64,000 bases of DNA. Origin: an uncultured Alphaproteobacteria bacterium. GTDB taxonomy: Bacteria > Pseudomonadota > Alphaproteobacteria > RF32 > CAG-239. Positions within the stretch are counted from its first letter, which is position 1, and each line of letters starts with the position of its first letter. The DNA lies in contig CAKQTH010000001.1 of assembly GCA_934276635.1 (NCBI GenBank), forward strand, positions 200,098 through 264,097, in the 5' to 3' direction. The notes under the pieces were generated by a model. The model did not search any database, was not told the DNA's origin, and worked only from the letters and a program-made list of their open reading frames with translations. Positions 1 through 64,000 of this stretch are shown here, one piece after another. The translations under genes were made by a program, and so were the position numbers.

Positions 1-391
1 AGTCTCAGACGGAAAAATCACTCTGTTTGCAAAGGTTTCAACAATTATTGCCGGACTTGCATATGATCATATTATCGAGCCGTTGCCTTATGTGTCAGAA
101 GAAAATCCATCGTATTCGCCAAAAGCAATCAGAGTTGTTGATGCAATGTTCAGAATTATTGATTCTCAAGGATTATGCATTGATTTAGGCGAGGGCTATC
201 ATGAAGTTTCTTTAGAAAAAATATGCAGCAAAAATAAGCTTGATATGAAGCCGAAGCTGTTTTCCGGAGATGTCGAAATGAAAGCTTTGGGGTGGATTCG
301 CGATATAAACAAACCGATGTGGAGCATAAAAAGCGACACTCCGTTTTGTTTTACACTGTTGTCGGTGTTGTTAAAAGTTAAAGTAAAATAA
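1..391 (+). CDS. hypothetical protein, C-terminal fragment (ORF is open to the window start)
   Basis: The reading frame is open from position 2 and runs into ORF 83..391. There is no recognisable family. The next ORF follows 25 nt downstream. Confidence 0.35.
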   Translation, partial: VSDGKITLFAKVSTIIAGLAYDHIIEPLPYVSEENPSYSPKAIRVVDAMFRIIDSQGLCIDLGEGYHEVSLEKICSKNKLDMKPKLFSGDVEMKALGWIRDINKPMWSIKSDTPFCFTLLSVLLKVKVK

Positions 392-415
392 TAAGATAAA
401 GAAAGGAGAAACATT

Positions 416-793
416 ATGGGAGGAGTAGTTAAAGAAGGCATAGAAACTGCTTATGGTGCATACAATTTTTATCAGGACAGAAAATCCGCAAAGAAAGAGC
501 TGAAAAATATCGAAGTTGAGCACGGCCTCAAACAACGGCAGATGCTGAATGTTTTGGAAAAAGATTTGGCATCGAGGCGCGCGCGTTTGGGCGGCCAGGG
601 AATCGGAAATTCAAACTCTTTTGATGCTTTGCAAAAACGAACTGCAAACGAGGCGTATTTGAACATTGTGCAAGACGATATTTCTAAAAAATCGCAAAAA
701 GATTCCATAAAAAAGACATATCGAAAGAATAGAGATCAGTTTGTTTATGACAATGCGACTAAAGCAATGGGCTACACAAAATTGTTATCATAA
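416..793 (+). CDS. hypothetical protein (125 aa)
   Basis: ORF with a strong RBS (aaaggagaaacatt-ATG), tightly spaced with its neighbours on the same strand. No family recognised. Confidence 0.4.
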   Translation: MGGVVKEGIETAYGAYNFYQDRKSAKKELKNIEVEHGLKQRQMLNVLEKDLASRRARLGGQGIGNSNSFDALQKRTANEAYLNIVQDDISKKSQKDSIKKTYRKNRDQFVYDNATKAMGYTKLLS

Positions 794-804
794 GGAGAAA
801 ATAT

Positions 805-1014: not shown

Positions 1015-1845
1015 TTACTTCAAAATTGTGTTTATTATTATGCAATATTTTTGACCTTTTGAAAGATGCGGTTTGGGCGAGATAATCTCCCAGCCGCGAT
1101 TTTTCATTTCATAAAAATATGTGGTATAAATATTAAGCAGAATTTTGAACGGAAGAGCCTGTTTCGGCGAAAGTTCGGACAGACTTCTGCGCGCGTTTTC
1201 GAGTGCTGTTTCAGCCATAAGTCCGAGCTTGGCGCGAACCTGCGTAAAATTTTTGTCTGTAATAATATGTTCAGGATTAGAGGAAAGAATGCCCGATGCG
1301 GCAACAAACTCTTTCGGAGCATACAATCTGTCCATTTTTGAATCTTCTTTTTCGTCTTTCAAAATATCCGTAATTTGCAGAAAAATCCCCATCTGCGCGG
1401 CGGCAGCCTCCGCAATTTTATCTTCAATCCCCATAATTTTCATTACAAAAAAGCATTGCGTCCCGGCGATAACACGGCAATATTGCTCAAAATCGTCAAG
1501 GCTCATATTTTGCATTGGATTAGGCAGATCAAGCGCGGTCTGCGAGATAAAATCCATAAATTTTTGTTTCGGTAGATGAAAACGCATACAGTTTTTATAA
1601 ATGTAGCGTCCAACATCGGTTGCCGGAACTTTGTTGTCGTAAATGTTGTGCATTTCTTCAATCCACGCCTTTATCAGCGCAATTTTTTCATCAGTCGGCA
1701 AAGCTCCGTCCACAATATTATCGATATGTCGGCAAAATGCGTATGAGGCATAAATCGCCTCGCGTTGAGCTTTCGGAAACAGATACATGCAGCTCCAATA
1801 AAAAACGGAGTTGCTTTTTTTGACTATTTTTCCGATTTGGCTCAT
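1015..1845 (-). CDS. squalene/phytoene synthase family protein (HpnD/CrtB-like)
   Basis: YASYAFCRHIDNIVDG and the overall layout of the trans-isoprenyl diphosphate synthase head-to-head family. Confidence 0.6.
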   Translation of the reverse strand: MSQIGKIVKKSNSVFYWSCMYLFPKAQREAIYASYAFCRHIDNIVDGALPTDEKIALIKAWIEEMHNIYDNKVPATDVGRYIYKNCMRFHLPKQKFMDFISQTALDLPNPMQNMSLDDFEQYCRVIAGTQCFFVMKIMGIEDKIAEAAAAQMGIFLQITDILKDEKEDSKMDRLYAPKEFVAASGILSSNPEHIITDKNFTQVRAKLGLMAETALENARRSLSELSPKQALPFKILLNIYTTYFYEMKNRGWEIISPKPHLSKGQKYCIIINTILK

Positions 1846-4516: not shown

Positions 4517-5128
4517 ATGAACAATATGCAAATTTCTCAGGTGGTATGTACGCGTATCAGCCACGATATTGTCGGAAATGTCGGCGCGGTTGCCAATGCG
4601 CTGGAGCTTTTTGAAGACGATGACAACGACTTTTTTGAAGATATCAAAAAAATTTTGGGCGTAAGTTCACGCGTTTTGGCCGCCAGAATGAAGTTTTTTC
4701 GTATGGCTTTCGGGCTTGAAAATGCGGCGCTGAAAAATTCCGAAACGGTTTTTGCCTCCATAACCGATTATTTGCACACACTCTCCGGTGAGGCCGGAAA
4801 AATCTCGTTTGAGGCAGAAAATATTATGCCGGAGCATAACAGAATTTTGATGCAGGCTGTTATGATGATGGCCGATTTGATGCCGTACGGCGGCCAGATT
4901 AAATGCTGCTATGAAAACGAGCGCTTGTGGGTGGCGGCAAATTGTGCGCGAGGATATTCGCAAGACAAAATTTCTGCGGTAAAATCAATCATATCAGGAG
5001 CAAAAGATTTTGATGCCGATGCGCAATATGCCCACATTTTGAGCCTTGTGGAAGAGACCAAAGACGAAAATAAAATGAAACTGATGACAATCGACGGGCC
5101 GGCGCTTGTCATCGGCAAAAACCTGTAA
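4517..5128 (+). CDS. chpT: ChpT-family histidine phosphotransferase (HPTransfase domain)
   Basis: RISHDIVGNVGAVANALEL with the FFRMAFG motif matches the ChpT phospho-His region LCHD...FxRxAFG. Confidence 0.55.
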   Translation: MNNMQISQVVCTRISHDIVGNVGAVANALELFEDDDNDFFEDIKKILGVSSRVLAARMKFFRMAFGLENAALKNSETVFASITDYLHTLSGEAGKISFEAENIMPEHNRILMQAVMMMADLMPYGGQIKCCYENERLWVAANCARGYSQDKISAVKSIISGAKDFDADAQYAHILSLVEETKDENKMKLMTIDGPALVIGKNL

Positions 5129-15470: not shown

Positions 15471-16025
15471 ATGAAAAAAATTTTGTTTGTTGCGGCTTTT
15501 GCTGCCGTGTTTTGTTTCGGATCTGCCGCTTTGGCCGCAGACGATGAAGAAAGTTGGTTTTCAAAGTGGAAAAGCAATGTTTCCGCTGTTGCCGATTCGT
15601 CAAATTATGACTTGTATATCCCGGCGTATGCGTGGCACAACCGTCTGACATATGATCAGGAACATATTGATAAATATAATGAAAACCCGTGGGGCGCCGG
15701 CGTCGGCAAACATATTTATGACAATAACGGGCATTGGCACGCGCTGTATGCGATGGCGTTTAAGGATTCTAACAAACACCTTGAAACAATTTTCGGCTAT
15801 GCTTATCAATACAACTGGTATTTTGGCGAGGCAAAAGATTTTATTGCCGGCGTCGGATATACTCTGAGCCTTACTCAACGCTCCGAATATGCATATATTC
15901 CGGTACCATTGCCGCTGCCGGTGTTTGGCGTCGGATACAAAAAACTCAGCGTTCAGGCCGCATATGTTCCAGGGGTGAAAAATGACGGAAATGTGCTGTT
16001 TACCTGGGTAAAAATAGAGCTTTAA
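15471..16025 (+). CDS. pagP: lipid A palmitoyltransferase PagP
   Basis: YDLYIPAYAWHNRLTYD...YNENPWGAGVG...GHWHALYAMAFKDS...YIPVPLPLPVFGVGY...GNVLFTWVKIEL is collinear with enterobacterial PagP. Confidence 0.8.
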   Translation: MKKILFVAAFAAVFCFGSAALAADDEESWFSKWKSNVSAVADSSNYDLYIPAYAWHNRLTYDQEHIDKYNENPWGAGVGKHIYDNNGHWHALYAMAFKDSNKHLETIFGYAYQYNWYFGEAKDFIAGVGYTLSLTQRSEYAYIPVPLPLPVFGVGYKKLSVQAAYVPGVKNDGNVLFTWVKIEL

Positions 16026-25292: not shown

Positions 25293-27029
25293 TTAGTGTT
25301 TATAAAGTTTCGGCAGCGGCGAATGTTTCTTCTTATTCTTAGATTTTTTTGCTCCGACGCGTTTCAGCGCCTTTACAAAATCAAGGTGTTTCCATTCGTT
25401 TTTGCTTTTTCCGTACAGATTTTGCGAAATTTCTTCCAAATAGCCGGAGAATTCGGCATCTTCGGCTTTTTCGGCCACAGCCTTCAAATCGGTTATGCTT
25501 TCGTTATACCGTTTTTGCGCCCAAACAATCAGAGCATCGCGCAGCTTTTTGAAGTCTTGTTCTTTTGCATATTTTGCCATATCTTTAACCGATGCCGCAA
25601 GTTCTTGCTTTTTCTCTTTCTTTGCCCCAAAAAGGATATACGAAATCAAAATTCCGGCCGCAAATGCCGCCAAAATCATCGCATACATAAAGCCGTGAGC
25701 CAAAGTGTCTTTTTGCATCTGAGCGGTTTTGGGCTGCATATGAGCCTGTCCCGGCAGATTTTCGGTCGAGGCATAATCAATATAATTTTCTTTTTGCTCA
25801 ATTTGCGGGTTTGGCAAAACAATGATAGTCTGTTCCTCGATTTCGGCCGTTCTGACGGTGTTGCTTTCTGTGTCAAACCACTTTACCGAAATTGCCGGAA
25901 TAGTCGTTTTTCCGGCCTTTTGCGGAATATAAACATTTGTAAATTCTTTGGTCGAAACAATGTCTCCGTTGCTGTCAAAGCTTGAAAACATCATCGGCTT
26001 TTCCGGGTATTGTTTCATATCTCTGGTTTGCGCGGTTTTAATGTCAGGCAGCTGTGTTTCAAGCACTCCGACCGCGCTCAGGCTGACATTTCTGGAAACA
26101 GCCTGTCCGACCATAAACTGCGGATTGCTGTCTGCCCATTCGGCTGTGAGCGACACATTTTTTGCCGGCAGCCACCAGCTGTTCCCGAAATCGGCGGCAA
26201 TCGGCTTAACCTCAACTTTTATGGGCTTTACATTGAGCGAAACCGGAGAACGCGCCGCAACCATATCAAAAATGTCTATGCCGGTATCAAAAAATCCGCG
26301 TCCGAATATATGATTTTTCGGAGAGCTCGATTGTTTCTGCCCGTTAACATAAAACCCGTTGAGCTGAATTTGCGGAGTTTGCAACAACCCGCTTCTTTGT
26401 GGAAACATCGCGTAATAAAACTTAATCTCACGCACATTCACGCCGTCAATCAGCTTGTTTTCAACCGTCGGCTCGCGCAAACTTTTGATAACCCAGTCGT
26501 TATTGTCATTGCCGAAAAATTCCGGCGCGTCGCTTTGCAACCCGCCTGCATCGTTCAGGGTCAGGGTATAGTTTATTTGCTGCTGAACATACGGTGTTTC
26601 ATTGTCAAGCTCTCCGTCCAGCGAAAAACGCGTATAAAGCGGAGTTCCGTCCTGTCCGTTTATGTTTCCTTCAAACACATTAAGCGCAATCGGATTGCTC
26701 TTGAGGTTTCCGAGAGAAATTGCCGGAATTTCAATCGCGCCGCTGTGGTTCGGCATCAAGGCAATCTGCCACTGGCGTGAAGACGATGTTTTTCCGTTAA
26801 TTATCTGTGTGGAATATGATTGAGAAGTTGAAAATATGGTAAAATCCTGCCGTAAAGCGCTCAAATCGGGCTTCAGAGAGTTGTCATTTCCGTCATAATC
26901 CAAAATAAGTAGCAATGTTTCGCCGTACGGAATATCGGTTCGGCTGACCGATGCATTAAAAGTCTGAGCGGAGGCTGCTTGTACGCAAAAGCAAAAAGCA
27001 ATTAAAAAACAGCATATTTTTTTCAACAT
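25293..27029 (-). CDS. batD: BatD-like protein
   Basis: Signal peptide, a large periplasmic domain and a C-terminal TM plus basic tail. Position in the bat operon. Confidence 0.6.
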   Translation of the reverse strand: MLKKICCFLIAFCFCVQAASAQTFNASVSRTDIPYGETLLLILDYDGNDNSLKPDLSALRQDFTIFSTSQSYSTQIINGKTSSSRQWQIALMPNHSGAIEIPAISLGNLKSNPIALNVFEGNINGQDGTPLYTRFSLDGELDNETPYVQQQINYTLTLNDAGGLQSDAPEFFGNDNNDWVIKSLREPTVENKLIDGVNVREIKFYYAMFPQRSGLLQTPQIQLNGFYVNGQKQSSSPKNHIFGRGFFDTGIDIFDMVAARSPVSLNVKPIKVEVKPIAADFGNSWWLPAKNVSLTAEWADSNPQFMVGQAVSRNVSLSAVGVLETQLPDIKTAQTRDMKQYPEKPMMFSSFDSNGDIVSTKEFTNVYIPQKAGKTTIPAISVKWFDTESNTVRTAEIEEQTIIVLPNPQIEQKENYIDYASTENLPGQAHMQPKTAQMQKDTLAHGFMYAMILAAFAAGILISYILFGAKKEKKQELAASVKDMAKYAKEQDFKKLRDALIVWAQKRYNESITDLKAVAEKAEDAEFSGYLEEISQNLYGKSKNEWKHLDFVKALKRVGAKKSKNKKKHSPLPKLYKH

Positions 27030-27032
27030 TTT

Positions 27033-28820
27033 CTATTCCTTATATCGATTTTTTCTGTATTCGCTCTCAATAAAAGCGCGTAAAAGCCCGCCCGGATCAG
27101 CCTCAATTTCCTGATATTGGCGCGCGCGGGCCATTACTTCTTCTGATGTAGTATCTTGTTTTTCATTTTGCAAGGAAGCGGACGGAGAGTTTTGCAAATT
27201 GTCGTTTTCGGGCTGCTCATCGCTTTGGCTTTGAGACTGCGGCTGAGAATTTCTGTTTTGCTGCTTGTCTTTTTCTCCGGAAGTTTCCTGCCCCTCAGAA
27301 CCTGATGATGATTGTTTGTCGTCATCAGAAGATTGTTTTTCGGGCGGTTGTTCGCTTTGTGCCTGTTGTTGCGATGACGATTGTTCCTGCTTTTGCTCAT
27401 CGCGGTTTTTGTCGTCAGAACCCTGTCCTTTGCTTTCTTGCTGATTTTCATCTTGATTCTGCTCGTCAGAGGAGGATTGCGAATTCTGCGAGTTGTTTTT
27501 ATCATCTTGATTTTCATCATTATTTTGCGAAGATGAAGACGAACTGTTTTGTTGTTGTTTCAGGTATTCTAAATTGAATTTTGCATCTTCATGATCAGGC
27601 TCTTTTTGCAAAACTTCTTCATATTTTTTGATTGCATCTTCGATTTTTCCGCCTTTTGCCAAAGCGTTTCCCTGATTATACAATCCGGTAACGCTGTTGT
27701 CGGCTGAAAATTTTTGATACGCCTCATCAAATTTTTCAGCTTTATACAGCGCGGAGGCCTGCCATTGCGCATCATCAAAATTTTGTGCGGCCTCTTCATA
27801 ATTTTTATTTTCAAACTGTTGCAGAGCTTCCTGATTTTTGTTTAAGAAAAATCCGGCATACGCGTTGTTTGCCGCCAGCAGCGAAATCAGAACGAAGGCG
27901 GATAAAATTCCGCGTCTGAACAGCAAAAGAACGCACAAAAGCGGCACAAACAAAAGATAATATCCAGCATCTTCCCAAACGGCAGTAAGGTTTTGCGATT
28001 GTTCAAAATGCTCGTTTTCGCTTTTTTTGATAAATTCCGCAAGTTGATTTATATTGTCCGAAAGGTTGAAATACCTTCCTTTTCCGGCCGCGGCAATCTG
28101 CGGCAAAAGTTCGTTTTTTTGATACGATATATCGGCAATGCTGACAAAAAATCCTTTGCCTGCGGCCTCTTTTGCCACCTTAATCGCATTTGAAACATTG
28201 CTTCCGCCGTCAGATGCAACAATTACGATGTTGCCGAAACCGAAACCGGCATTTTGTAAACCGCTGACCGCAAATTCTATGGCACGGTCAATACGGTTGC
28301 CGTTTTCGGGCATAATGTCGTATTCCACCGCAGGCAGAATGTTTTCAATAATCGCGGCATCTTCACTGACCGGAACAATTTCAAACGGCTCGGAAGAATA
28401 TGCCTCAAGGCCGATTTGGCTGTTCGGCAGCATTTTTATCAGGTCTGAAATCAGGTATTTTGCTCTGGACAGCCGCGACGGTTTTATGTCGTTGCTTTCC
28501 ATATCCGTTGAGATGTTTATGCTTATCATTACCGGATTTTGCTGATAAAGCGGCGGAATTTCTTTTTGCCGATACGAGGGGCCGGCCGCCGCGATAATCG
28601 CGCAGACAAAACCGAGCAATATTAGACGAAAAATGTTGCGCCGGCGGTGGTTGCTGCCTTTGATTAAAAGATACGGCAGCAAATCTTTATCACATACCGA
28701 TTCCCATGAAGAAACATTTCCGTATTCTTTCTTTTGCAAAAAATACAAAGCGGCGGGGAGCAACAGCAAAATCAACAGCCACGGGCGCAAAAAGTGAAAA
28801 TTAAGCCAAAATTCGCTCAT
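27033..28820 (-). CDS. batB: BatB-like protein (vWA + TPR + acidic low-complexity tail)
   Basis: N-terminal TM helices, a vWA MIDAS-like DxSxS (ISTDMES), TPR-like repeats and a 4-nt overlap with batA. Confidence 0.65.
   Translation of the reverse strand: MSEFWLNFHFLRPWLLILLLLPAALYFLQKKEYGNVSSWESVCDKDLLPYLLIKGSNHRRRNIFRLILLGFVCAIIAAAGPSYRQKEIPPLYQQNPVMISINISTDMESNDIKPSRLSRAKYLISDLIKMLPNSQIGLEAYSSEPFEIVPVSEDAAIIENILPAVEYDIMPENGNRIDRAIEFAVSGLQNAGFGFGNIVIVASDGGSNVSNAIKVAKEAAGKGFFVSIADISYQKNELLPQIAAAGKGRYFNLSDNINQLAEFIKKSENEHFEQSQNLTAVWEDAGYYLLFVPLLCVLLLFRRGILSAFVLISLLAANNAYAGFFLNKNQEALQQFENKNYEEAAQNFDDAQWQASALYKAEKFDEAYQKFSADNSVTGLYNQGNALAKGGKIEDAIKKYEEVLQKEPDHEDAKFNLEYLKQQQNSSSSSSQNNDENQDDKNNSQNSQSSSDEQNQDENQQESKGQGSDDKNRDEQKQEQSSSQQQAQSEQPPEKQSSDDDKQSSSGSEGQETSGEKDKQQNRNSQPQSQSQSDEQPENDNLQNSPSASLQNEKQDTTSEEVMARARQYQEIEADPGGLLRAFIESEYRKNRYKE
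27140..27557 (-). repeat. low-complexity S/Q/D/E/N-rich coding region within batB (about 140 aa)
   Basis: The translation is dominated by S, Q, D, E, N and K over about 140 residues. The nucleotide sequence is a-, g- and c-rich simple sequence. Confidence 0.5.
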
Positions 28821-29842
28821 GACTTTTTCTCCCTAAGCAAAACCGCAAGCATAGCGGCGAAAATCGCGCCAAGCAGCGGAATATAGAATATGTCTTTGGT
28901 GTTTTTTACAAATTTTGCATCATCGTTGTCCGCTTCCAACCGGTTGATTATCTCATACACTTTGAACAGAGAATCCGTGTCTGCGGCGCGAAAATACTGC
29001 CCTTGCGTTTCTTTGGCAATCGCTTCCAGTTCCGGATTTTTGTTTTCGGTCGAAAGTCCGGTATATGCGGATAAAAATGACTGAAACAGCGAAGTTTCGT
29101 TGCCGACCCCGATAGTATAAATTTTGACATTTTCTTCTTTTGCCAGCTTTACGGCTTGAGCCAGAGACATTGCTCCGTCATTGTTCTCTCCGTCCGTAAG
29201 CAGAATAATTATTTTTGCCGCATTGTCTTTTTGTCCGGCAAGAGTCTTGACCGCCAGCCCGAGAGCGTCTCCGATGGAAGTCGAGCGGCCGGCCATTCCG
29301 GGCTGCATATCAAGCACGATTTTTTTGACGGCCTCGCGGTCGAATGTCGGCGGAGACTGCAGATATGCGCGTGTTCCGAACAGCACAAGTCCGATTTTGT
29401 CGTTAAGCCTTTTGTTCAAAAAATCAAAAGCGGCAAGTTTTACGGCATTAATTCTTGATGTCCGCTTACCCGCAACCGCATAATCCTGCTCCAGCATAGA
29501 GGTTGAAATGTCCATTACAAGCACAATCTTTCGCCCGAAATTTTGTGAGCGAAAAGGATCTCCGACCCAAAGCGGGCGGGCGGCAGCAAGGCACAGCAGA
29601 GCAAAGACGAGATACAAAATTTTCAAAAATTTTCCGTTGCCCTGAAATGAAAGACCGTAATTTTTTACCGTATAAGTTTTGATTTGCGCCAAAGATGAAA
29701 TAAACGGAATTTTGAGCGCGTCGCCATGCATACCTTTTGCCAGCGGCATCGCCGCCCTATAAACAAACGGCGCGGCCAAAAGCAAAAACATATATGGATA
29801 CGAAAACTCAATCATAAGTTTTCTCCGATCCATTTGCGGCAA
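28817..29842 (-). CDS. batA: BatA-like vWA-domain protein
   Basis: TM helices plus a vWA domain with MIDAS (VLVMDISTSM...TDGENN). The true start may be MIEFSY at 29815, which would avoid overlap with the upstream gene. Confidence 0.7.
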   Translation of the reverse strand: MPQMDRRKLMIEFSYPYMFLLLAAPFVYRAAMPLAKGMHGDALKIPFISSLAQIKTYTVKNYGLSFQGNGKFLKILYLVFALLCLAAARPLWVGDPFRSQNFGRKIVLVMDISTSMLEQDYAVAGKRTSRINAVKLAAFDFLNKRLNDKIGLVLFGTRAYLQSPPTFDREAVKKIVLDMQPGMAGRSTSIGDALGLAVKTLAGQKDNAAKIIILLTDGENNDGAMSLAQAVKLAKEENVKIYTIGVGNETSLFQSFLSAYTGLSTENKNPELEAIAKETQGQYFRAADTDSLFKVYEIINRLEADNDDAKFVKNTKDIFYIPLLGAIFAAMLAVLLREKKS

Positions 29843-30279
29843 AAATCGCGCAGATTTTCAAAATCGTTTGAGGTATATATTGTTGAATTTTTTGCGATAT
29901 ACGGCGCATCGGAAAGCAGCATTCCGGCTCTGGGCACAATCTTTTTGGTGCAATGATTGTTCAAAAAATTGAGCCATTCGGTCGGAGCCATTGCCGCTGC
30001 TTCCGGATATTTGTACACGCAAATTCGGCGCAAAAGCTCTGAGGCAATGACCGCCGCTGGCACAATTTTTGTCGGGGAAATCCGGTTTATCAGATGCAGT
30101 GCGTACATTTTTCGGCTTTTTGTCCGCAGATTTTTTATCAGCCTGAAAATAAACGGTAGTAAAATAATCGCAAGTCCGATTACAAACCAGCCGTATGCGG
30201 GCGGAAACCAATCGACGCCGCTCGGAATATGAATATCTCTCAATTCTGGCAGATTCTCGTTCATCACAATATTATCCAA
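29812..30279 (-). CDS. DUF4381-like membrane protein (bat operon accessory)
   Basis: W/P-rich N-terminus, a single TM helix and a basic stretch. Immediately upstream of batA. Confidence 0.5.
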   Translation of the reverse strand: MDNIVMNENLPELRDIHIPSGVDWFPPAYGWFVIGLAIILLPFIFRLIKNLRTKSRKMYALHLINRISPTKIVPAAVIASELLRRICVYKYPEAAAMAPTEWLNFLNNHCTKKIVPRAGMLLSDAPYIAKNSTIYTSNDFENLRDFCRKWIGENL

Positions 30280-39433: not shown

Positions 39434-39527
39434 CTTTACAAGACAAAATTGCGGAGAATCGTTTGTCACATTATCAAAACGAGTATCGGCGAACAGTCTT
39501 ATGTGTGTGTATTATAGGAGTACGAAT

Positions 39528-41957
39528 ATGAAAAAGTTGGGGATGGCGATTCTGTTCGCCTGTTTGGCATATTCCTTTATTGAGGTATCGCCTGTTAATG
39601 CCGGCGTCTGTTTTGTGGTAAACGGGGACTGCGGCCAAAAAATCACGGTAAAGCCGAAAGGTTGTGAAAATTTGGGAGGCATGGAAGACTGCGTCAAAAA
39701 CGGAATGCTCCCGGATTATGAGTCGGCAAAACAGTGTACCTCGGGTGGAGTTGTATATACAAGCAAATGTTTGTGCGATCCAGACAGATTTCCGTATACA
39801 AAAGACGGGCTTAAAGACAACGCCTATTATGAAGCCGGCGGAGAAACCTGCAAAGACCGAACAGGTACATATTACGCTTGGGAGATTTGTCGCGCATCAT
39901 ATAAATATACATTAAATCAAAATGATGTTGACGCAATCAAAAATGAATCTCCTAAATATCATAATGGTGCTGCGGTTTGTGAAAACAGATCAATGGTGCC
40001 GTTTACAAGCCCCTGGTTTTGCACGGAAAAAGACGGAGTATCGTCTTCTTTCAGCAGATATACCAGCTGTGATTGTGACACGAGCATATACAAATATAAC
40101 TCAACAAATAAGGGACTGTACGCATTGTCGGGTGTAATGTGCAAGGGAACCGACAATGTTGAGAGATATACGGCGCTGGCATGTCCTACAATGTATCCGT
40201 ATAAAAAATGTACCGGAGATTTGGTTGATGACAAAATAATGCCGAGTTCTGGTGAAGCAAATTTTGATTGTTATACCTGCAAATGCGCGGCAAAGTTTGA
40301 ATATCCGTCAACTTTGGGCAACAGCATAATCGGTAGCGGAAACCAATGCGATACAAAATGGGATAACTATAAATGTCCGACAACCTATCCGTTGCAAAAA
40401 TGCACCGAAACAACGACATACGCATGTGAAAAAATCACATCGACCGTAAACTCTAAGGCCGTTTGTTATAAACAGGCCAAAAAGCCGACATGTGCGGAAA
40501 TCGGCGGATTGACATTGGCGGAAAAGAATGCGGAGCCTGCGGCTAAAACAGCTTTGTATGACTATAAAACGGCATCGCAAATCAGCGTGGACGACAAAGG
40601 CGTCGGTTGTTACTTCAGAATCCCGAAGACTTGCGAACAGTTGAAATACAGCCAAACGAAAACGGAAGCGGGGCATGGATATACCATATCCGACTATTAT
40701 ACTTCAAAACCATTGGCCGGATTAAGAATCTATCCCGAAACAAAAACATTCCCTGATGCATATACTGGAAATTATACAGGCAAAGTTTCTTCAAGAGTAT
40801 GTTTCAGAAAGCATTCGGACTGCGTGGCCGGAGATGCGTTAACAACAAGCGGACATTGTATGCCTAAAACAACTGGTATTGGTATCATCGGTTGGACCGG
40901 AGCCTCTGCTTACAGCGGTTATGGTGTTAACAGCACAAAAATAGGTATGGTTATTTCGAAGAGCGGCTCCGGATCAACAATCAGCGTCAATTATATTCCG
41001 TTGACTGATGCCGGATATTATCCGAAATATAAAAGATGGTCTCCATATAGTGACGGATCCGGATATGTGTATAAGGATAATTCCGGTAATAAAATTGAAA
41101 TAACCGGAGCATATGACAGCGTAAGCAATATGATGAATATCAGTCAAGCCAATACACTTATATCTAATTTGACGGCATATAAAGATATGGGTGGTACTGT
41201 GCATAATACAACCCGCACTCTGGTTAAAAATACGACTGACGATAAAGATTGGAAAGGCACTTCATCAATAAAAGTCAGAGAGTGCTATTATGTTAAAAAT
41301 ACTGCCACAACAGGAACATATGCTTATGTCAGAAGAGTTGTTCTGGACCCGAACACTAGCGGAGTTGTTTCGGCCACTAACAAGAAAAAACCGCGGTTTT
41401 TGTACGGAGTCCATGCATATGCGGAAGGCCCTGCCGCTCATAAAGTATTGTATGACGAAGACGCAAACGGAAATACTGCAGAACACAAAATTACAATGAA
41501 CAAATTAAACAACTTTACAACTTGGGATAAAGATGCAGATGTTCAACCGGCTCGTATCTATCGTTCATTTAATGCAAAAGAAGAAAAAGCTTGCGGTGTA
41601 CACGGAGCATCTCCTCAAAAAGGAAGAGCTTATGTTAACTCCTATGCGGAAGAAAATGACACGGCAATATTCCAAGTATATTATTGCCAGTTGCCAATGT
41701 ACTTCAGACGCCCTAACAGAACATGCGTCAAAACTCACAATGCGGATACAGGTACTCCAGAAGCAAATTGTTGGGTAACTCAATGGTTGAGGGCTGGTCT
41801 TGGTGATGGATTCTTGAGTTGTCCCGATGATATATGTACGGTTGCATATACCGGAGACAGCACGGCAAAATGGGGAACTCAAGGCTGTTATGTTAAGTCA
41901 GTACTGACTAAAACATCGACGGTTTCAAGAGGAACAAATTGGACTAAGATATATTAA
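39528..41957 (+). CDS. large secreted cysteine-rich protein (about 810 aa) of unknown function with internal CPTxYPxxKCT repeats
   Basis: Signal peptide MKKLGMAILFACLAYSFIEVSPVNA. More than 40 Cys in the N-terminal 430 aa. ACPTMYPYKKCT and KCPTTYPLQKCT repeats. G/S/T/Y-rich C-terminal half. No family recognised. Confidence 0.65.
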   Translation: MKKLGMAILFACLAYSFIEVSPVNAGVCFVVNGDCGQKITVKPKGCENLGGMEDCVKNGMLPDYESAKQCTSGGVVYTSKCLCDPDRFPYTKDGLKDNAYYEAGGETCKDRTGTYYAWEICRASYKYTLNQNDVDAIKNESPKYHNGAAVCENRSMVPFTSPWFCTEKDGVSSSFSRYTSCDCDTSIYKYNSTNKGLYALSGVMCKGTDNVERYTALACPTMYPYKKCTGDLVDDKIMPSSGEANFDCYTCKCAAKFEYPSTLGNSIIGSGNQCDTKWDNYKCPTTYPLQKCTETTTYACEKITSTVNSKAVCYKQAKKPTCAEIGGLTLAEKNAEPAAKTALYDYKTASQISVDDKGVGCYFRIPKTCEQLKYSQTKTEAGHGYTISDYYTSKPLAGLRIYPETKTFPDAYTGNYTGKVSSRVCFRKHSDCVAGDALTTSGHCMPKTTGIGIIGWTGASAYSGYGVNSTKIGMVISKSGSGSTISVNYIPLTDAGYYPKYKRWSPYSDGSGYVYKDNSGNKIEITGAYDSVSNMMNISQANTLISNLTAYKDMGGTVHNTTRTLVKNTTDDKDWKGTSSIKVRECYYVKNTATTGTYAYVRRVVLDPNTSGVVSATNKKKPRFLYGVHAYAEGPAAHKVLYDEDANGNTAEHKITMNKLNNFTTWDKDADVQPARIYRSFNAKEEKACGVHGASPQKGRAYVNSYAEENDTAIFQVYYCQLPMYFRRPNRTCVKTHNADTGTPEANCWVTQWLRAGLGDGFLSCPDDICTVAYTGDSTAKWGTQGCYVKSVLTKTSTVSRGTNWTKIY

Positions 41958-42201: not shown

Positions 42202-42353
42202 ATAATCCGTAAATCTGACCGGAATATAACCCGTATAATTTTTTTTTGCAACCACTTTTTTTATTTTTTTTACAAAACTGTTATTTTATGTTTGAAAAAT
42301 GAATATTATCTGCTAATAATATGGAAAATTTTTGCTGTTTAAGGAGAAAAATA

Positions 42354-43139
42354 ATGAAAAAATTGATGTATGTCTTGCTGATTTTGCTGGTTATTATCGT
42401 TCTGGCTCTCGGTGCCGCTTATATGTTTTTGGACGATATCGTTAAAAATGCCGTAAATACATACGGCCCGAAAGTTCTCGGCGCGCCAGTCAGTGTTGCA
42501 AATGTTTCGCTCAAACCGATTAAAGGCGAATTTGTTATCGGCGGTATTAAGGTCGGCAATTCCGACAAGTTTAAGTCTGAAAATCTTATCAGCCTCGGCA
42601 AAGTTGTCGTTTATGTTGATATGAAAAGCCTTTTCAGCGACAAAATCATTGTAAAATCAGTTGAAGTTGCAAAGCCGGAAATCACATATGAAATGATTTC
42701 GCTCACCACAAACAATATTTCCGAATTTTTGAAGAATATGAATGCAAATCAGGGAAAAACTTCTGCCTCTGAACAAAAAGCGGAAACAAAACAGGCTGAA
42801 AATTCCGCAAAAGCTTCCGATTCATCTTCAAAATCGGTCGTAATCAAAAATATTGATGTTACGGACGGAAAAATCGACGCGGTTATGAATGTTGCAGGCA
42901 ACACAAATTCCGTTTCGGTTGTTTTGCCGAATATCAATATGAAAAATGTCGGAGAAGAGAAAAAGCAAAATATTGCTCAGACCATTGTAGAAGTTGTTAA
43001 TCAGGTTTTGAAAACGGCATTGAATACGGTTGTCAACGCAAATGTTTCGGATTTGAAAGGCGTTGCCGATGAAAATATGAACAATATCGTTGATAAAGTA
43101 AAAGAAAAAGTCGGAAATCTCGGCTTGTTTGGAAAATAA
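42354..43139 (+). CDS. hypothetical membrane-anchored protein (N-terminal TM helix, beta-rich)
   Basis: MKKLMYVLLILLVIIVLALGAAY TM helix. No family confidently recognised. Confidence 0.45.
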   Translation: MKKLMYVLLILLVIIVLALGAAYMFLDDIVKNAVNTYGPKVLGAPVSVANVSLKPIKGEFVIGGIKVGNSDKFKSENLISLGKVVVYVDMKSLFSDKIIVKSVEVAKPEITYEMISLTTNNISEFLKNMNANQGKTSASEQKAETKQAENSAKASDSSSKSVVIKNIDVTDGKIDAVMNVAGNTNSVSVVLPNINMKNVGEEKKQNIAQTIVEVVNQVLKTALNTVVNANVSDLKGVADENMNNIVDKVKEKVGNLGLFGK

Positions 43140-43163: not shown

Positions 43164-44606
43164 ATGTTAGCCCCAAAAAATAATGTTTCGCCAATTCGCG
43201 GCGAAGTGTTGGTCGAAGTCGTTAAAAGTTTTGCTCAAGATAAATTTGCCGATGCCGACAAAATTATGCAAAATATTGTGCCGGACGATGCAAAACCGGT
43301 ACGCGGCTCAATCGAAAGAGACCGTGAAGTTGTCAAACAGCAGTGTATGGCCGCAATGGGATTTTGCCCGCAAGATGAAGATACAACCGCAGATTTGGCT
43401 TCTTTAGGCGCCAGAGCTTTGGAACGCACAACACCTGAAGAACCGCGCATTTCTGTGATTAAGGCGGCCTGCGACGGCTGTATGCCTTTGCGCTATACGG
43501 TGACAAATATGTGCCGCAGTTGTGTTGCCCGCCCTTGTGAGGCTAATTGTCCGCGTGCGGCGATTTCTGTTGAAAAACAAGCAGTTATTGACCAAACAAA
43601 ATGCGTAAAATGCGGAATCTGTTCAACGGTATGTCCGTACGGCGCAATCAACAAGGCGGTTGTCCCGTGTGAAGACGCTTGCCCAGTCGGTGCGCTGTCT
43701 AAGGACGAAAACGGCAAGGAACAGATTGATCCGCAAAAATGCATTCATTGCGGAAAATGTGTTATGTCCTGTCCGTTCGGAGCGATTGTTCAGCGTTCGC
43801 AAATGGTTGATGTTTTGAATAAATTGGCCGACAAAAACAAGAGAGTTGTGGCGATGCTTGCTCCTGCGTTTTTGGGACAATTTGCGGGACAGGTCGGCAA
43901 TGTTGTGTCCGCGCTCAAAAAAATCGGATTTTCCGATGTGGTGGAAGTTGCAATCGGGGCAGAGGTTACGACAGTTAAAGAAGCGGCTGAATTTGTGGAA
44001 AGAATGCATGAGGGCAAGCCGTTTATGACAACATCGTGCTGTCCGGCCTATGTTCGTGCCGCAAAACTCCATATGCCCGAGATTTTGCCGTTTGTTTCGG
44101 ATACCAAAAGCCCGATGTATTATTCGGCCGAAATGGTTAAAAAAGCTGATCCTCAATGCGTTTCGGTGTTTGTCGGCCCATGTATGGCAAAGCGTGTGGA
44201 AGCGGCGGAAAATCCGAATGTTGACTATGTTTTGATATTTGAGGAAATTGCAGCAATGTTCGCTGGTCTCGGTGTTAATGTTGCGGAATGCGAAGCGCAG
44301 GATTTTGCTGAAATTTCAAGCTCTCAAGGTCGTCAGTTCCCGCTTTCTGGAGGAGTTGCCGGTGCGGTTGCCTCAATAATCGGAGACAAAGCGGATTATC
44401 GTCCGGAAAAAATCGATGGTTTGAACAAAGACAATGTCAAACTCATCAAACGCTATGCGGCAAAAGGCTTTGACGGCAATATGCTTGAAGTTATGTGCTG
44501 CGAAGGCGGTTGCATTGCGGGCCCGGGCTGCGTCGCTTTGGCGAAAAAGGCCGCAAAGGTTGTGGAAAATTATGTTAAAGAAGGTCCCGACCTCAAAAAT
44601 AAATAA
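43164..44606 (+). CDS. [FeFe]-hydrogenase-like protein (multiple 4Fe-4S ferredoxin motifs plus Fe-only hydrogenase H-domain)
   Basis: CxxCxxCxxxCP motifs (CVKCGICSTVCP, CIHCGKCVMSCP). H-cluster L1 TSCCPAYV and L2 GPCMAKRVE. L3 reads EVMCCEGGCIAGPGC, which deviates from ExMACxxGCxxGGGQP. Confidence 0.75.
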   Translation: MLAPKNNVSPIRGEVLVEVVKSFAQDKFADADKIMQNIVPDDAKPVRGSIERDREVVKQQCMAAMGFCPQDEDTTADLASLGARALERTTPEEPRISVIKAACDGCMPLRYTVTNMCRSCVARPCEANCPRAAISVEKQAVIDQTKCVKCGICSTVCPYGAINKAVVPCEDACPVGALSKDENGKEQIDPQKCIHCGKCVMSCPFGAIVQRSQMVDVLNKLADKNKRVVAMLAPAFLGQFAGQVGNVVSALKKIGFSDVVEVAIGAEVTTVKEAAEFVERMHEGKPFMTTSCCPAYVRAAKLHMPEILPFVSDTKSPMYYSAEMVKKADPQCVSVFVGPCMAKRVEAAENPNVDYVLIFEEIAAMFAGLGVNVAECEAQDFAEISSSQGRQFPLSGGVAGAVASIIGDKADYRPEKIDGLNKDNVKLIKRYAAKGFDGNMLEVMCCEGGCIAGPGCVALAKKAAKVVENYVKEGPDLKNK

Positions 44607-44612
44607 TCAGCA

Positions 44613-44642
44613 ATTGAGCCTCATTTTTGAGGCTCTTTTTTT
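44613..44642 (+). terminator. rho-independent terminator
   Basis: gagcctca-ttttt-tgaggctc hairpin followed by TTTTTTT. Confidence 0.5.
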
Positions 44643-44827
44643 GAGCAGTCGGCAGAGTTTTTGTCTTTCGGCTTACCTTTTGTGCAACCGCATTTTTCAT
44701 CTGCAACATCGCATGACGGACATGTAAAATCGTGTCCCATATTGTTCGGATAGGTGCAGCCACAGTTGTCATCTTCGCGGCAGTCGCAGCGGTTTTCATA
44801 GTCATAATAGCATTTTGATTTTTCCAT
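44621..44827 (-). CDS. small cysteine-rich protein (about 68 aa, 10 Cys), possibly metal-binding
   Basis: ORF with GAGGT RBS 6 nt before ATG (MEKSKCYYDYENRCDCREDDNCGC...). Its 3' end overlaps the hydrogenase terminator, and a terminator hairpin lies just upstream. Confidence 0.35.
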   Translation of the reverse strand: MEKSKCYYDYENRCDCREDDNCGCTYPNNMGHDFTCPSCDVADEKCGCTKGKPKDKNSADCSKKEPQK

Positions 44828-44901
44828 ATTATACCTCATAAAAAAGACCGATAATCGTATCGGTCTTTTGATATAATCGCTGTGCGGCAATTTTAAATGA
44901 G

Positions 44902-62248: not shown

Positions 62249-62325
62249 GGGCCCTTAGCTCAGTTGGTTAGAGCAGACCGCTCATAACGGTCCGGTCGTT
62301 GGTTCGAGTCCATCAGGGCCCACCA
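62249..62325 (+). tRNA. tRNA-Met or tRNA-Ile2 (anticodon CAT; G1-C72, so not an initiator)
   Basis: Manual fold: acceptor GGGCCCT/AGGGCCC, D-arm GCTCAGTTGGTTAGAGC, anticodon stem GACCG/CGGTC, loop CTCATAA, T-loop TTCGAGT with one U-U mismatch in the T-stem, and encoded CCA. Confidence 0.8.
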
Positions 62326-63858: not shown

Positions 63859-64000
63859 ATTCTTCTAATATAAATTTTGTAAACGATTGATTTGCTTTAG
63901 CTCTGGCATCATCTAATAAAGATGATACTTTCTGAGTAACTTCTTCAATTTGTTCATCAGGCACATCTTTATTGCTTGTTTTGGTAAGCGTTTCTTTTTT
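63845..64000 (-). pseudogene. upstream partial ORF running off the window end, in a different frame from the Mrr_cat ORF (putative N-terminal part of a frameshifted Mrr-like gene)
   Basis: The minus-strand frame reads ...DVPDEQIEEVTQKVSSLLDDARAKANQSFTKFILEEFDPIQF then stops. The sequence FDPIQF would splice naturally onto QELCGALFRGMGY of the Mrr_cat ORF after a 1-nt shift at a T4 run. Confidence 0.3.

Follow-up and report, generated by a model that had tools for sequence, protein, structure and literature searches.

Group B [FeFe] hydrogenases, the principal H2-producing enzyme type among gut bacteria, are reported from 37% of human-gut bacterial species (2026 preprint), and those of Bacteroides combine an H-domain carrying two clusters with a smaller ferredoxin-like domain that holds two off-pathway clusters, with short flexible linkers (Welsh et al. 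2025, PMC12578642). Once loaded with a synthetic cofactor, the Bacteroides enzymes produced H2, and an H-cluster signal was recorded by electron paramagnetic resonance for that of B. fragilis (PMC12578642). In vivo, they reoxidise ferredoxin reduced by pyruvate:ferredoxin oxidoreductase (PFOR), and they are described as monomeric and ferredoxin-dependent (PMC12578642). The so-called 'type A' enzymes, found in gut Rhodospirillales-like metagenome-assembled genomes (MAGs), lack a C-terminal small-subunit-like domain and carry extra N-terminal Fe-S clusters (PMC4967309); in gut alphaproteobacterial MAGs, this hydrogenase type is accompanied by HydE, HydF, HydG, PFO and ferredoxin (Degli Esposti et al. 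2016, PMC4967309). The window analysed here, a 64,000-nucleotide stretch of contig CAKQTH010000001.1 from an uncultured alphaproteobacterium of the RF32 lineage, contains a hydrogenase gene at 43164..44606 (+ strand) that encodes 480 residues. We consider it highly probable that its product is a monomeric group B [FeFe] hydrogenase of the catalytic kind (B1/B3; Meyer M3a; 'type A' of Degli Esposti et al.), as indicated by its family profile, its H-domain and its modelled fold. A literature search on RF32 and hydrogenase yielded nothing useful.

The reading frame starts with an ATG codon, has a GAGGA ribosome-binding site 5' of it and ends with a TAA stop codon. Its assignment to the hydrogenases lies far beyond chance, because Pfam recognizes the H-domain (Fe_hyd_lg_C, PF02906; 43839..44525, + strand, residues 226–454) at 1.1e-59 together with Fer4 domains. 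The list of reading frames, the motif positions and this Pfam match show that the frame and every motif quoted in a preliminary description of this DNA are real. At the subfamily level, the protein scores 512 bits against TIGR04105 ("monomeric [FeFe] hydrogenase", subfamily B1; group B1/B3), for which the curated cutoff is 450, and the alignment extends over residues 6–457 and profile positions 3–459 of 462. All group A profiles remain far below their cutoffs (TIGR02512, 163 versus 406 bits; NF040762, 133 versus 900; NF040763, 143 versus 765). More than 4,380 database proteins match the hydrogenase at E<1e-20, and those with a name are annotated as "monomeric [FeFe] hydrogenase" by NCBI or as "[FeFe] hydrogenase (group B1/B3)" by JGI. 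The preliminary description had reasoned that membership in a characterised catalytic clade, with maturases elsewhere in the genome, would leave the gene unremarkable; the clade half of that case is what the TIGR04105 family membership indicates. The gene is a correctly read, ordinary member of an already-known type.

The predicted fold leads to the same enzymes. An AlphaFold2 model built from 41 homologues (pLDDT 88.5, pTM 0.86) was compared with solved structures by Foldseek, and the best matches are all [FeFe] hydrogenases, namely CbA5H, CpI, the HydA of HydABC and DdH, at E values of about 1e-21 to 1e-18; over the structural alignments, CbA5H, CpI and DdH are ~20–26% identical to the protein. 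The TM scores of about 0.58 are modest because, to our knowledge, no group B structure has been solved.

Within the H-domain, the residues that hold and service the H-cluster are complete. Positions were mapped to CpI numbering through a HMMER alignment, and conservation was read from two sets: the best 120 protein matches of the hydrogenase (close homologues), and 99 near-full-length proteins, each representing a cluster at 50% identity in a library of 1.84 billion proteins (diverse representatives). The L1 motif TSCCP (44031..44045, + strand, residues 290–294) supplies C292, which corresponds to the relay cysteine C299 of CpI, and C293, which corresponds to the [4Fe-4S]H ligand C300. The L2 motif PCMAKRVE (44178..44201, + strand, residues 339–346) supplies the ligand C340 together with K343 and E346, and the stretch F336-V-G338 lies just before it. 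Collectively, the four H-cluster ligands C293, C340, C446 and C450 align with CpI C300, C355, C499 and C503; the pocket residues K343, E346 and M444 align with CpI K358, E361 and M497; and the proton-relay residues C292, E273, E276 and S312 align with CpI C299, E279, E282 and S319. Each of these ligand, pocket and relay residues is found in 120/120 close homologues and in 89–98 of the 99 diverse representatives; at R280 (CpI R286), 105 of the 120 close homologues carry Arg and the other 15 carry Lys. The preliminary description had also envisaged that the catalytic Cys ligands might be missing; all four are kept, both in the alignment to CpI and throughout the 120 close homologues.

The pocket additionally displays the residues expected of group B. 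Specifically, F336 and G338 stand in place of CpI T351 and M353, and A235 provides an Ala in place of S232. In CpIII, the corresponding Phe/Gly pair (F266/G268) likewise replaces CpI T351/M353 and an Ala replaces S232 (PMC12138974). These substitutions, along with loss of the CpI P294 position ahead of L1, are shared with both M2a enzymes, CpIII (Clostridium pasteurianum) and ToHydA (Thermosediminibacter oceani). The two M2a proteins, however, combine a TSCCCP motif with two accessory clusters, whereas the window protein combines TSCCP with four. Its L1 is the plain TSCCP, not the M2a form, and TSCCCP is seen only in more distant representatives. Placement in subgroup M2a was considered and ruled out by the TSCCP motif and by the four accessory cluster sites in place of two. 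The group A1 enzymes CpI, DdH and CbA5H have the H-domain fold, the ligand set and the proton relay in common with the window protein, but differ in the end of L3 (GGGQP, compared with AGPGC here), in their other N-terminal domains and in a C-terminal small-subunit-like region that the window protein lacks, and the group A profiles are not reached.

The L3 motif EVMCCEGGCIAGPGC (44487..44531, + strand, residues 442–456) contributes the pocket residue M444 and the ligands C446 and C450, and it also includes two non-ligand, clade-specific cysteines, C445 and C456. It ends in AGPGC rather than the group A GGGQP, and its departure from ExMACxxGCxxGGGQP had led to it being regarded as divergent. 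That label applies only relative to group A: in the best 120 homologues, L3 reads EVMCCEGGC[IV][SAG]GPGC nearly without exception, so that EVMCCEGGCIAGPGC represents the consensus within its clade. Among the diverse representatives, the first residue of the tail is Gly in 95/99 and the next is Pro in 66/99, and GGGQP was not seen in the L3 motif listing of the group B representatives. Because the clade consensus matches and this tail is the norm across the group B representatives, the GP-type tail is a group B trait and no peculiarity of this gene. A motif held against the group A consensus can thus seem divergent and yet be normal for its own group.

The two additional cysteines of L3 set this clade apart from the Bacteroides enzymes. 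C445 (CpI A498), directly before the ligand C446, is Cys in 109/120 close homologues and Ser or Thr in the rest, with Ala at this position in 49/99 diverse representatives; C456, which closes the motif, is Cys in 102/120 close homologues and Thr or Ala in the remainder. Both occur together in 91/120 close homologues, C445 alone in 18 and C456 alone in 11. An obligate pair was therefore rejected: the two positions do not strictly co-vary, and they should be neither essential ligands nor an obligate pair. Across the alignments, C445 and C456 are a specific trait of the alphaproteobacterial clade. As an analogy with the TSCCCP enzymes and their supernumerary Cys would suggest, they might do something new at the H-cluster, acting as a redox- or O2-responsive switch, as an alternative ligand or in tuning the potential of the cubane; we regard such a role as unlikely. 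If it were true, it would define a functionally distinct group B variant fitted to a micro-oxic gut niche.

The region N-terminal to the H-domain is built around accessory clusters. Residues 1–95 (43164..43448, + strand) form a helical region, with helices at 9–26, 33–38, 50–64 and 78–87 in the AlphaFold2 model; it lies within the family model from residue 6, and beyond the close clade its cysteines C61 and C68 are not conserved. The accessory-cluster region that follows (43449..43793, + strand, residues 96–210) contains 16 cysteines, each present in 119–120 of the 120 close homologues and in 90–98 of the 99 diverse representatives. Located between residues 103 and 203, they are enough for four [4Fe-4S] clusters, in agreement with the initial estimate of about four Cys clusters, and they include two canonical CxxCxxCxxxCP motifs (residues 147–158 and 193–204). 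A 2x[4Fe-4S] ferredoxin-like domain (NCBIfam NF058577 FdxA_fam; 43494..43646, + strand, residues 111–161) is inserted in this region, flanked by dips in pLDDT at residues 101–110 and 161–170, as expected of linkers. This insertion would split an outer ferredoxin fold beside the H-domain composed of C103, C106 ... C169, C173 and C193–C203, an arrangement in which the allocation of individual cysteines to clusters is predicted. At the opposite end, the protein extends just 24 residues past L3 and carries no C-terminal small-subunit-like domain.

In cluster architecture and gut habitat, the window protein is of the same family-level type as the Bacteroides enzymes (B. fragilis 'HydM' and those of B. 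thetaiotaomicron and B. vulgatus). It differs from them in having an alphaproteobacterial host and in belonging to a clade in which Cys, where Ala is usual, precedes the first L3 ligand and a further Cys ends L3. The 'type A' (Meyer M3a) enzymes of the gut MAGs Acetobacter sp. CAG:977, Azospirillum sp. CAG:239 and CAG:260 also fit, in a comparison made by description only.

The most likely function is ferredoxin-dependent fermentative H2 evolution, with maturation by an unlinked HydEFG system. We infer the activity, the electron donor, the direction of catalysis and the presence of maturases as follows. Reduced ferredoxin, typically generated by pyruvate:ferredoxin oxidoreductase in fermentation, would serve as the electron donor, and electrons would pass through the two [4Fe-4S] clusters adjoining the H-domain to the H-cluster. 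There, a [4Fe-4S] cubane would be held by C293, C340, C446 and C450, the last of which aligns with CpI C503 and would form the bridge to the di-iron site. Protons would be delivered through a relay comprising R280, E276, S312, E273 and C292 and reduced to H2. The inserted second ferredoxin-like domain would carry two further clusters, and insertion of the di-iron subsite would fall to HydE, HydF and HydG, whose genes would lie at other sites in the genome.

Several observations count against this assignment. The maturase search combined a Pfam scan of ~45 larger window ORFs with a reading of the 10 kb past each edge, taken from public contigs of the same organism, and it found no hydE, hydF, hydG, PFOR, ferredoxin or partner-subunit gene in the scanned window ORFs or within 10 kb past each end. 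Some Alphaproteobacteria, e.g. R. rubrum, reportedly have [FeFe] hydrogenase genes without maturases (as cited in PMC4967309). Identity between the hydrogenase and the closest group B enzymes studied so far is about 45% at most; its L1 loop is one residue shorter than that of CpI, with the CpI P294 position deleted; and its L3 carries the two clade-specific extra cysteines, C445 and C456.

The lack of maturases within about 84 kb, together with the R. rubrum precedent, bears most directly on the view that the product is a non-hydrogenase Fe-S protein (Nar1-like or otherwise repurposed) or an inactive relic in a genome without HydEFG. This view is nevertheless very improbable, for C292, K343, M444, E273, E276 and S312 are invariant in 120 homologues from many species, which is hard to explain without a functional H-cluster. 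Furthermore, a survey of 733 ORFs from 80 related loci by radical-SAM motif search and clustering found no radical-SAM maturase candidate within 10 kb of the orthologue in 80/80 loci. Non-linkage of the maturases is therefore the rule, and they are nevertheless present in published gut alphaproteobacterial MAGs with the same hydrogenase type. The earlier remark that no hydE, hydF, hydG or partner subunits lie in the window holds among the Pfam-scanned ORFs, and the term orphan is literally true of the gene; what falls away is its significance, since the maturases are unlinked in all 80 related loci. As regards a Nar1/NARF-like protein in particular, the residues that service the di-iron site are all retained, as judged by a residue census with no dedicated Nar1 model run.

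A second possibility is a multimeric hydrogenase, NAD(P)H-linked or electron-bifurcating, for which this gene would supply the catalytic subunit and other loci the partners. HydA1 of the bifurcating HydABC complex (8a6t, 1.4e-32), the best match by sequence in the PDB, and the small NuoE-like 2Fe-2S proteins near the orthologue in relatives are consistent with such a complex. The group A6 (NADH-dependent) profile, however, gives only 143 bits against a cutoff of 765, and the C-terminal extension of the HydABC-type HydA is absent. There are no NuoE- or NuoF-like genes in the window, and the NuoE-like genes of the relatives flank a sensory cassette instead. In the literature, group B enzymes are regarded as monomers that depend on ferredoxin (PMC12578642), and we give a multimeric enzyme a correspondingly very small probability.

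The sensory cassette provides an internal control for the catalytic reading of the window hydrogenase. A second hydrogenase of ~590 residues lies just upstream of the orthologue in 39–41 of the 80 related loci, carries a C-terminal Fe-S (PF04060)/PAS-like module and adjoins a SpoIIE-type phosphatase gene. In all 39 sensory-type paralogues, the relay Cys position is Ala, the position of CpI E279 is a gap, CpI M497 is replaced by Leu, and Thr, Ala, Ile or Val occupies the position of CpI S319. Because these paralogues differ at exactly the relay positions, the window hydrogenase is assigned, on residue identity, to the catalytic and not the sensory type. That it might instead be a sensory or regulatory hydrogenase (groups C, D-like), binding H2 for signalling without turnover, is suggested by an L3 unlike the group A consensus and by a gene standing alone without partner subunits, but is extremely unlikely given a complete proton relay that 39/39 true sensory-type paralogues have lost, a TIGR04105 score of 512 bits against only 169 for those paralogues, a protein that ends 24 residues past L3 with no PAS or C-terminal FeS domain, and the absence of a SpoIIE gene from the window. 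Among the three options offered initially, the evidence favours the true H2-evolving enzyme over a sensory or bifurcating partner and over a Nar1-like protein; the sensory and Nar1-like readings are contradicted by the full retention of H-cluster ligands and relay residues, the relay being what the sensory paralogues have lost.

The cassette itself, found upstream of the orthologue in about half of the related MAGs, comprises the sensory hydrogenase, a SpoIIE/PP2C phosphatase, two small NuoE-like 2Fe-2S proteins and an EAL-domain protein (loci L005–L010 and ~40 of loci L010–L089, e.g. L010:3764-6727). Its arrangement suggests H2-sensing control of the group B enzyme in these relatives. The cassette is absent at the present locus, where tblastn detected no second hydrogenase or SpoIIE homologue in the window.

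The enzyme is widespread among related gut bacteria. In a scan with one genome per species, ~70 gut and rumen alphaproteobacterial MAG species carry orthologues of 51–64% identity, including Proteobacteria bacterium CAG:495, Acetobacter sp. 46_36 and Candidatus Scatocola, and orthologues in related CAG-type and similar MAGs are 57–59% identical. The initial view that [FeFe] hydrogenases are uncommon in Alphaproteobacteria does not extend to this group, in which such MAGs were already reported in 2016 (PMC4967309). After the alphaproteobacterial orthologues, the next matches are from Treponema and Butyricimonas at about 45% identity, with Bacteroidales (Butyricimonas and others) at 44–46%. The best identity to any species representative is 64%, and the window species is a different, more divergent lineage than the 'type A' MAGs. 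The gene adds one uncultured human-gut alphaproteobacterium to the gut bacteria that probably shed fermentative reducing power as H2 via group B enzymes, and beyond its correct annotation it matters little.

The alphaproteobacterial context proposed initially is supported by Lon, TrmFO and DUF2155. The Lon protein encoded in the window is 76–78% identical to that of many gut MAGs, the sole source-named one being "Alphaproteobacteria bacterium", and TrmFO/GIDA and DUF2155 are confirmed in the window. The ChpT candidate (4517–5128, + strand) gives only a marginal Pfam HPTransfase match (E 1.6e-4, 21.8 bits versus a cutoff of 22.9), and taken alone it is weak evidence for a CckA-ChpT-CtrA pathway. 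Human-gut metagenome contigs from Hadza and other samples carry identical hydrogenase and Lon sequences in an unchanged gene order. The host appears to be an anaerobic gut alphaproteobacterium. The window also contains a Bat-like operon (25293–30279, - strand), with BatD, VWA/TPR proteins, a DUF58-like VWA protein and DUF4381, that resembles the Bacteroides aerotolerance operon.

At the locus itself, a gene for a DUF748/AsmA-like membrane protein (42321..43139, + strand; Pfam DUF748, 6.2e-19) ends 24 nt before the hydrogenase start. A promoter-like site, recognized by consensus match only, lies ahead of it at 42292–42320, and the DUF748 gene and the hydrogenase gene are possibly co-transcribed from this site. 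Public contigs of the same organism show the two genes paired in the same way, but no related locus does. Downstream, a strong terminator-like hairpin (44616..44635, + strand) with an 8-bp stem containing 5 G-C pairs, followed by a T-run, lies 10 nt past the stop codon. Immediately 3' of the hydrogenase gene is a convergent, Cys-rich small ORF (44621–44890, - strand), listed at 89 residues and called at 68 residues on public contigs; it has no family match, and it is present only on contigs of the same organism and in 0 related loci.

None of the flanking genes in the window has a homologue around the hydrogenases of the relatives. Because the flanking genes differ from those of all relatives' loci, the hydrogenase gene occupies a different chromosomal position in this lineage. 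Recent horizontal acquisition was considered and set aside: the GC content of the gene (0.478) differs too little from the window mean (0.43), and nothing marks a mobile element.

Upstream of the DUF748 gene, 39501–41957 (+ strand) encodes an 818-residue Cys-rich protein with an N-terminal signal-like segment, for which Pfam and NCBIfam give no match. Public contigs of the same organism carry it in full versions of 809 and 754 residues and in shorter copies cut at contig ends. This variation in called length among the public contigs suggests a variable surface protein.

Both ends of the window have distinctive compositions and neighbours. The left end is low in GC (0.38 over positions 1–2000); on public contigs of the same organism, a T7-like podovirus prophage adjoins it (L099–L101, 11053–20831), with genes for a nozzle, capsid, head-tail connector and terminase; a 125-residue ORF at 416–793, within window positions 1–800, is the second gene on the prophage side. 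Toward the right end, a tRNA-Met gene at 62249–62325 is followed by a drop in GC to 0.34 up to position 64000 and by Mrr-like restriction genes, and a type I restriction-modification system lies just past the right edge (L102:11255-20810). The region after the tRNA-Met gene probably represents a genomic island that integrated at this tRNA. Two further genes are unrelated to the hydrogenase: a squalene/phytoene synthase family gene (SQS_PSY) at 1015–1845 (- strand), known from precomputed hits on public contigs, and a gene for the lipid A palmitoyltransferase PagP at 15471–16025 (+ strand).

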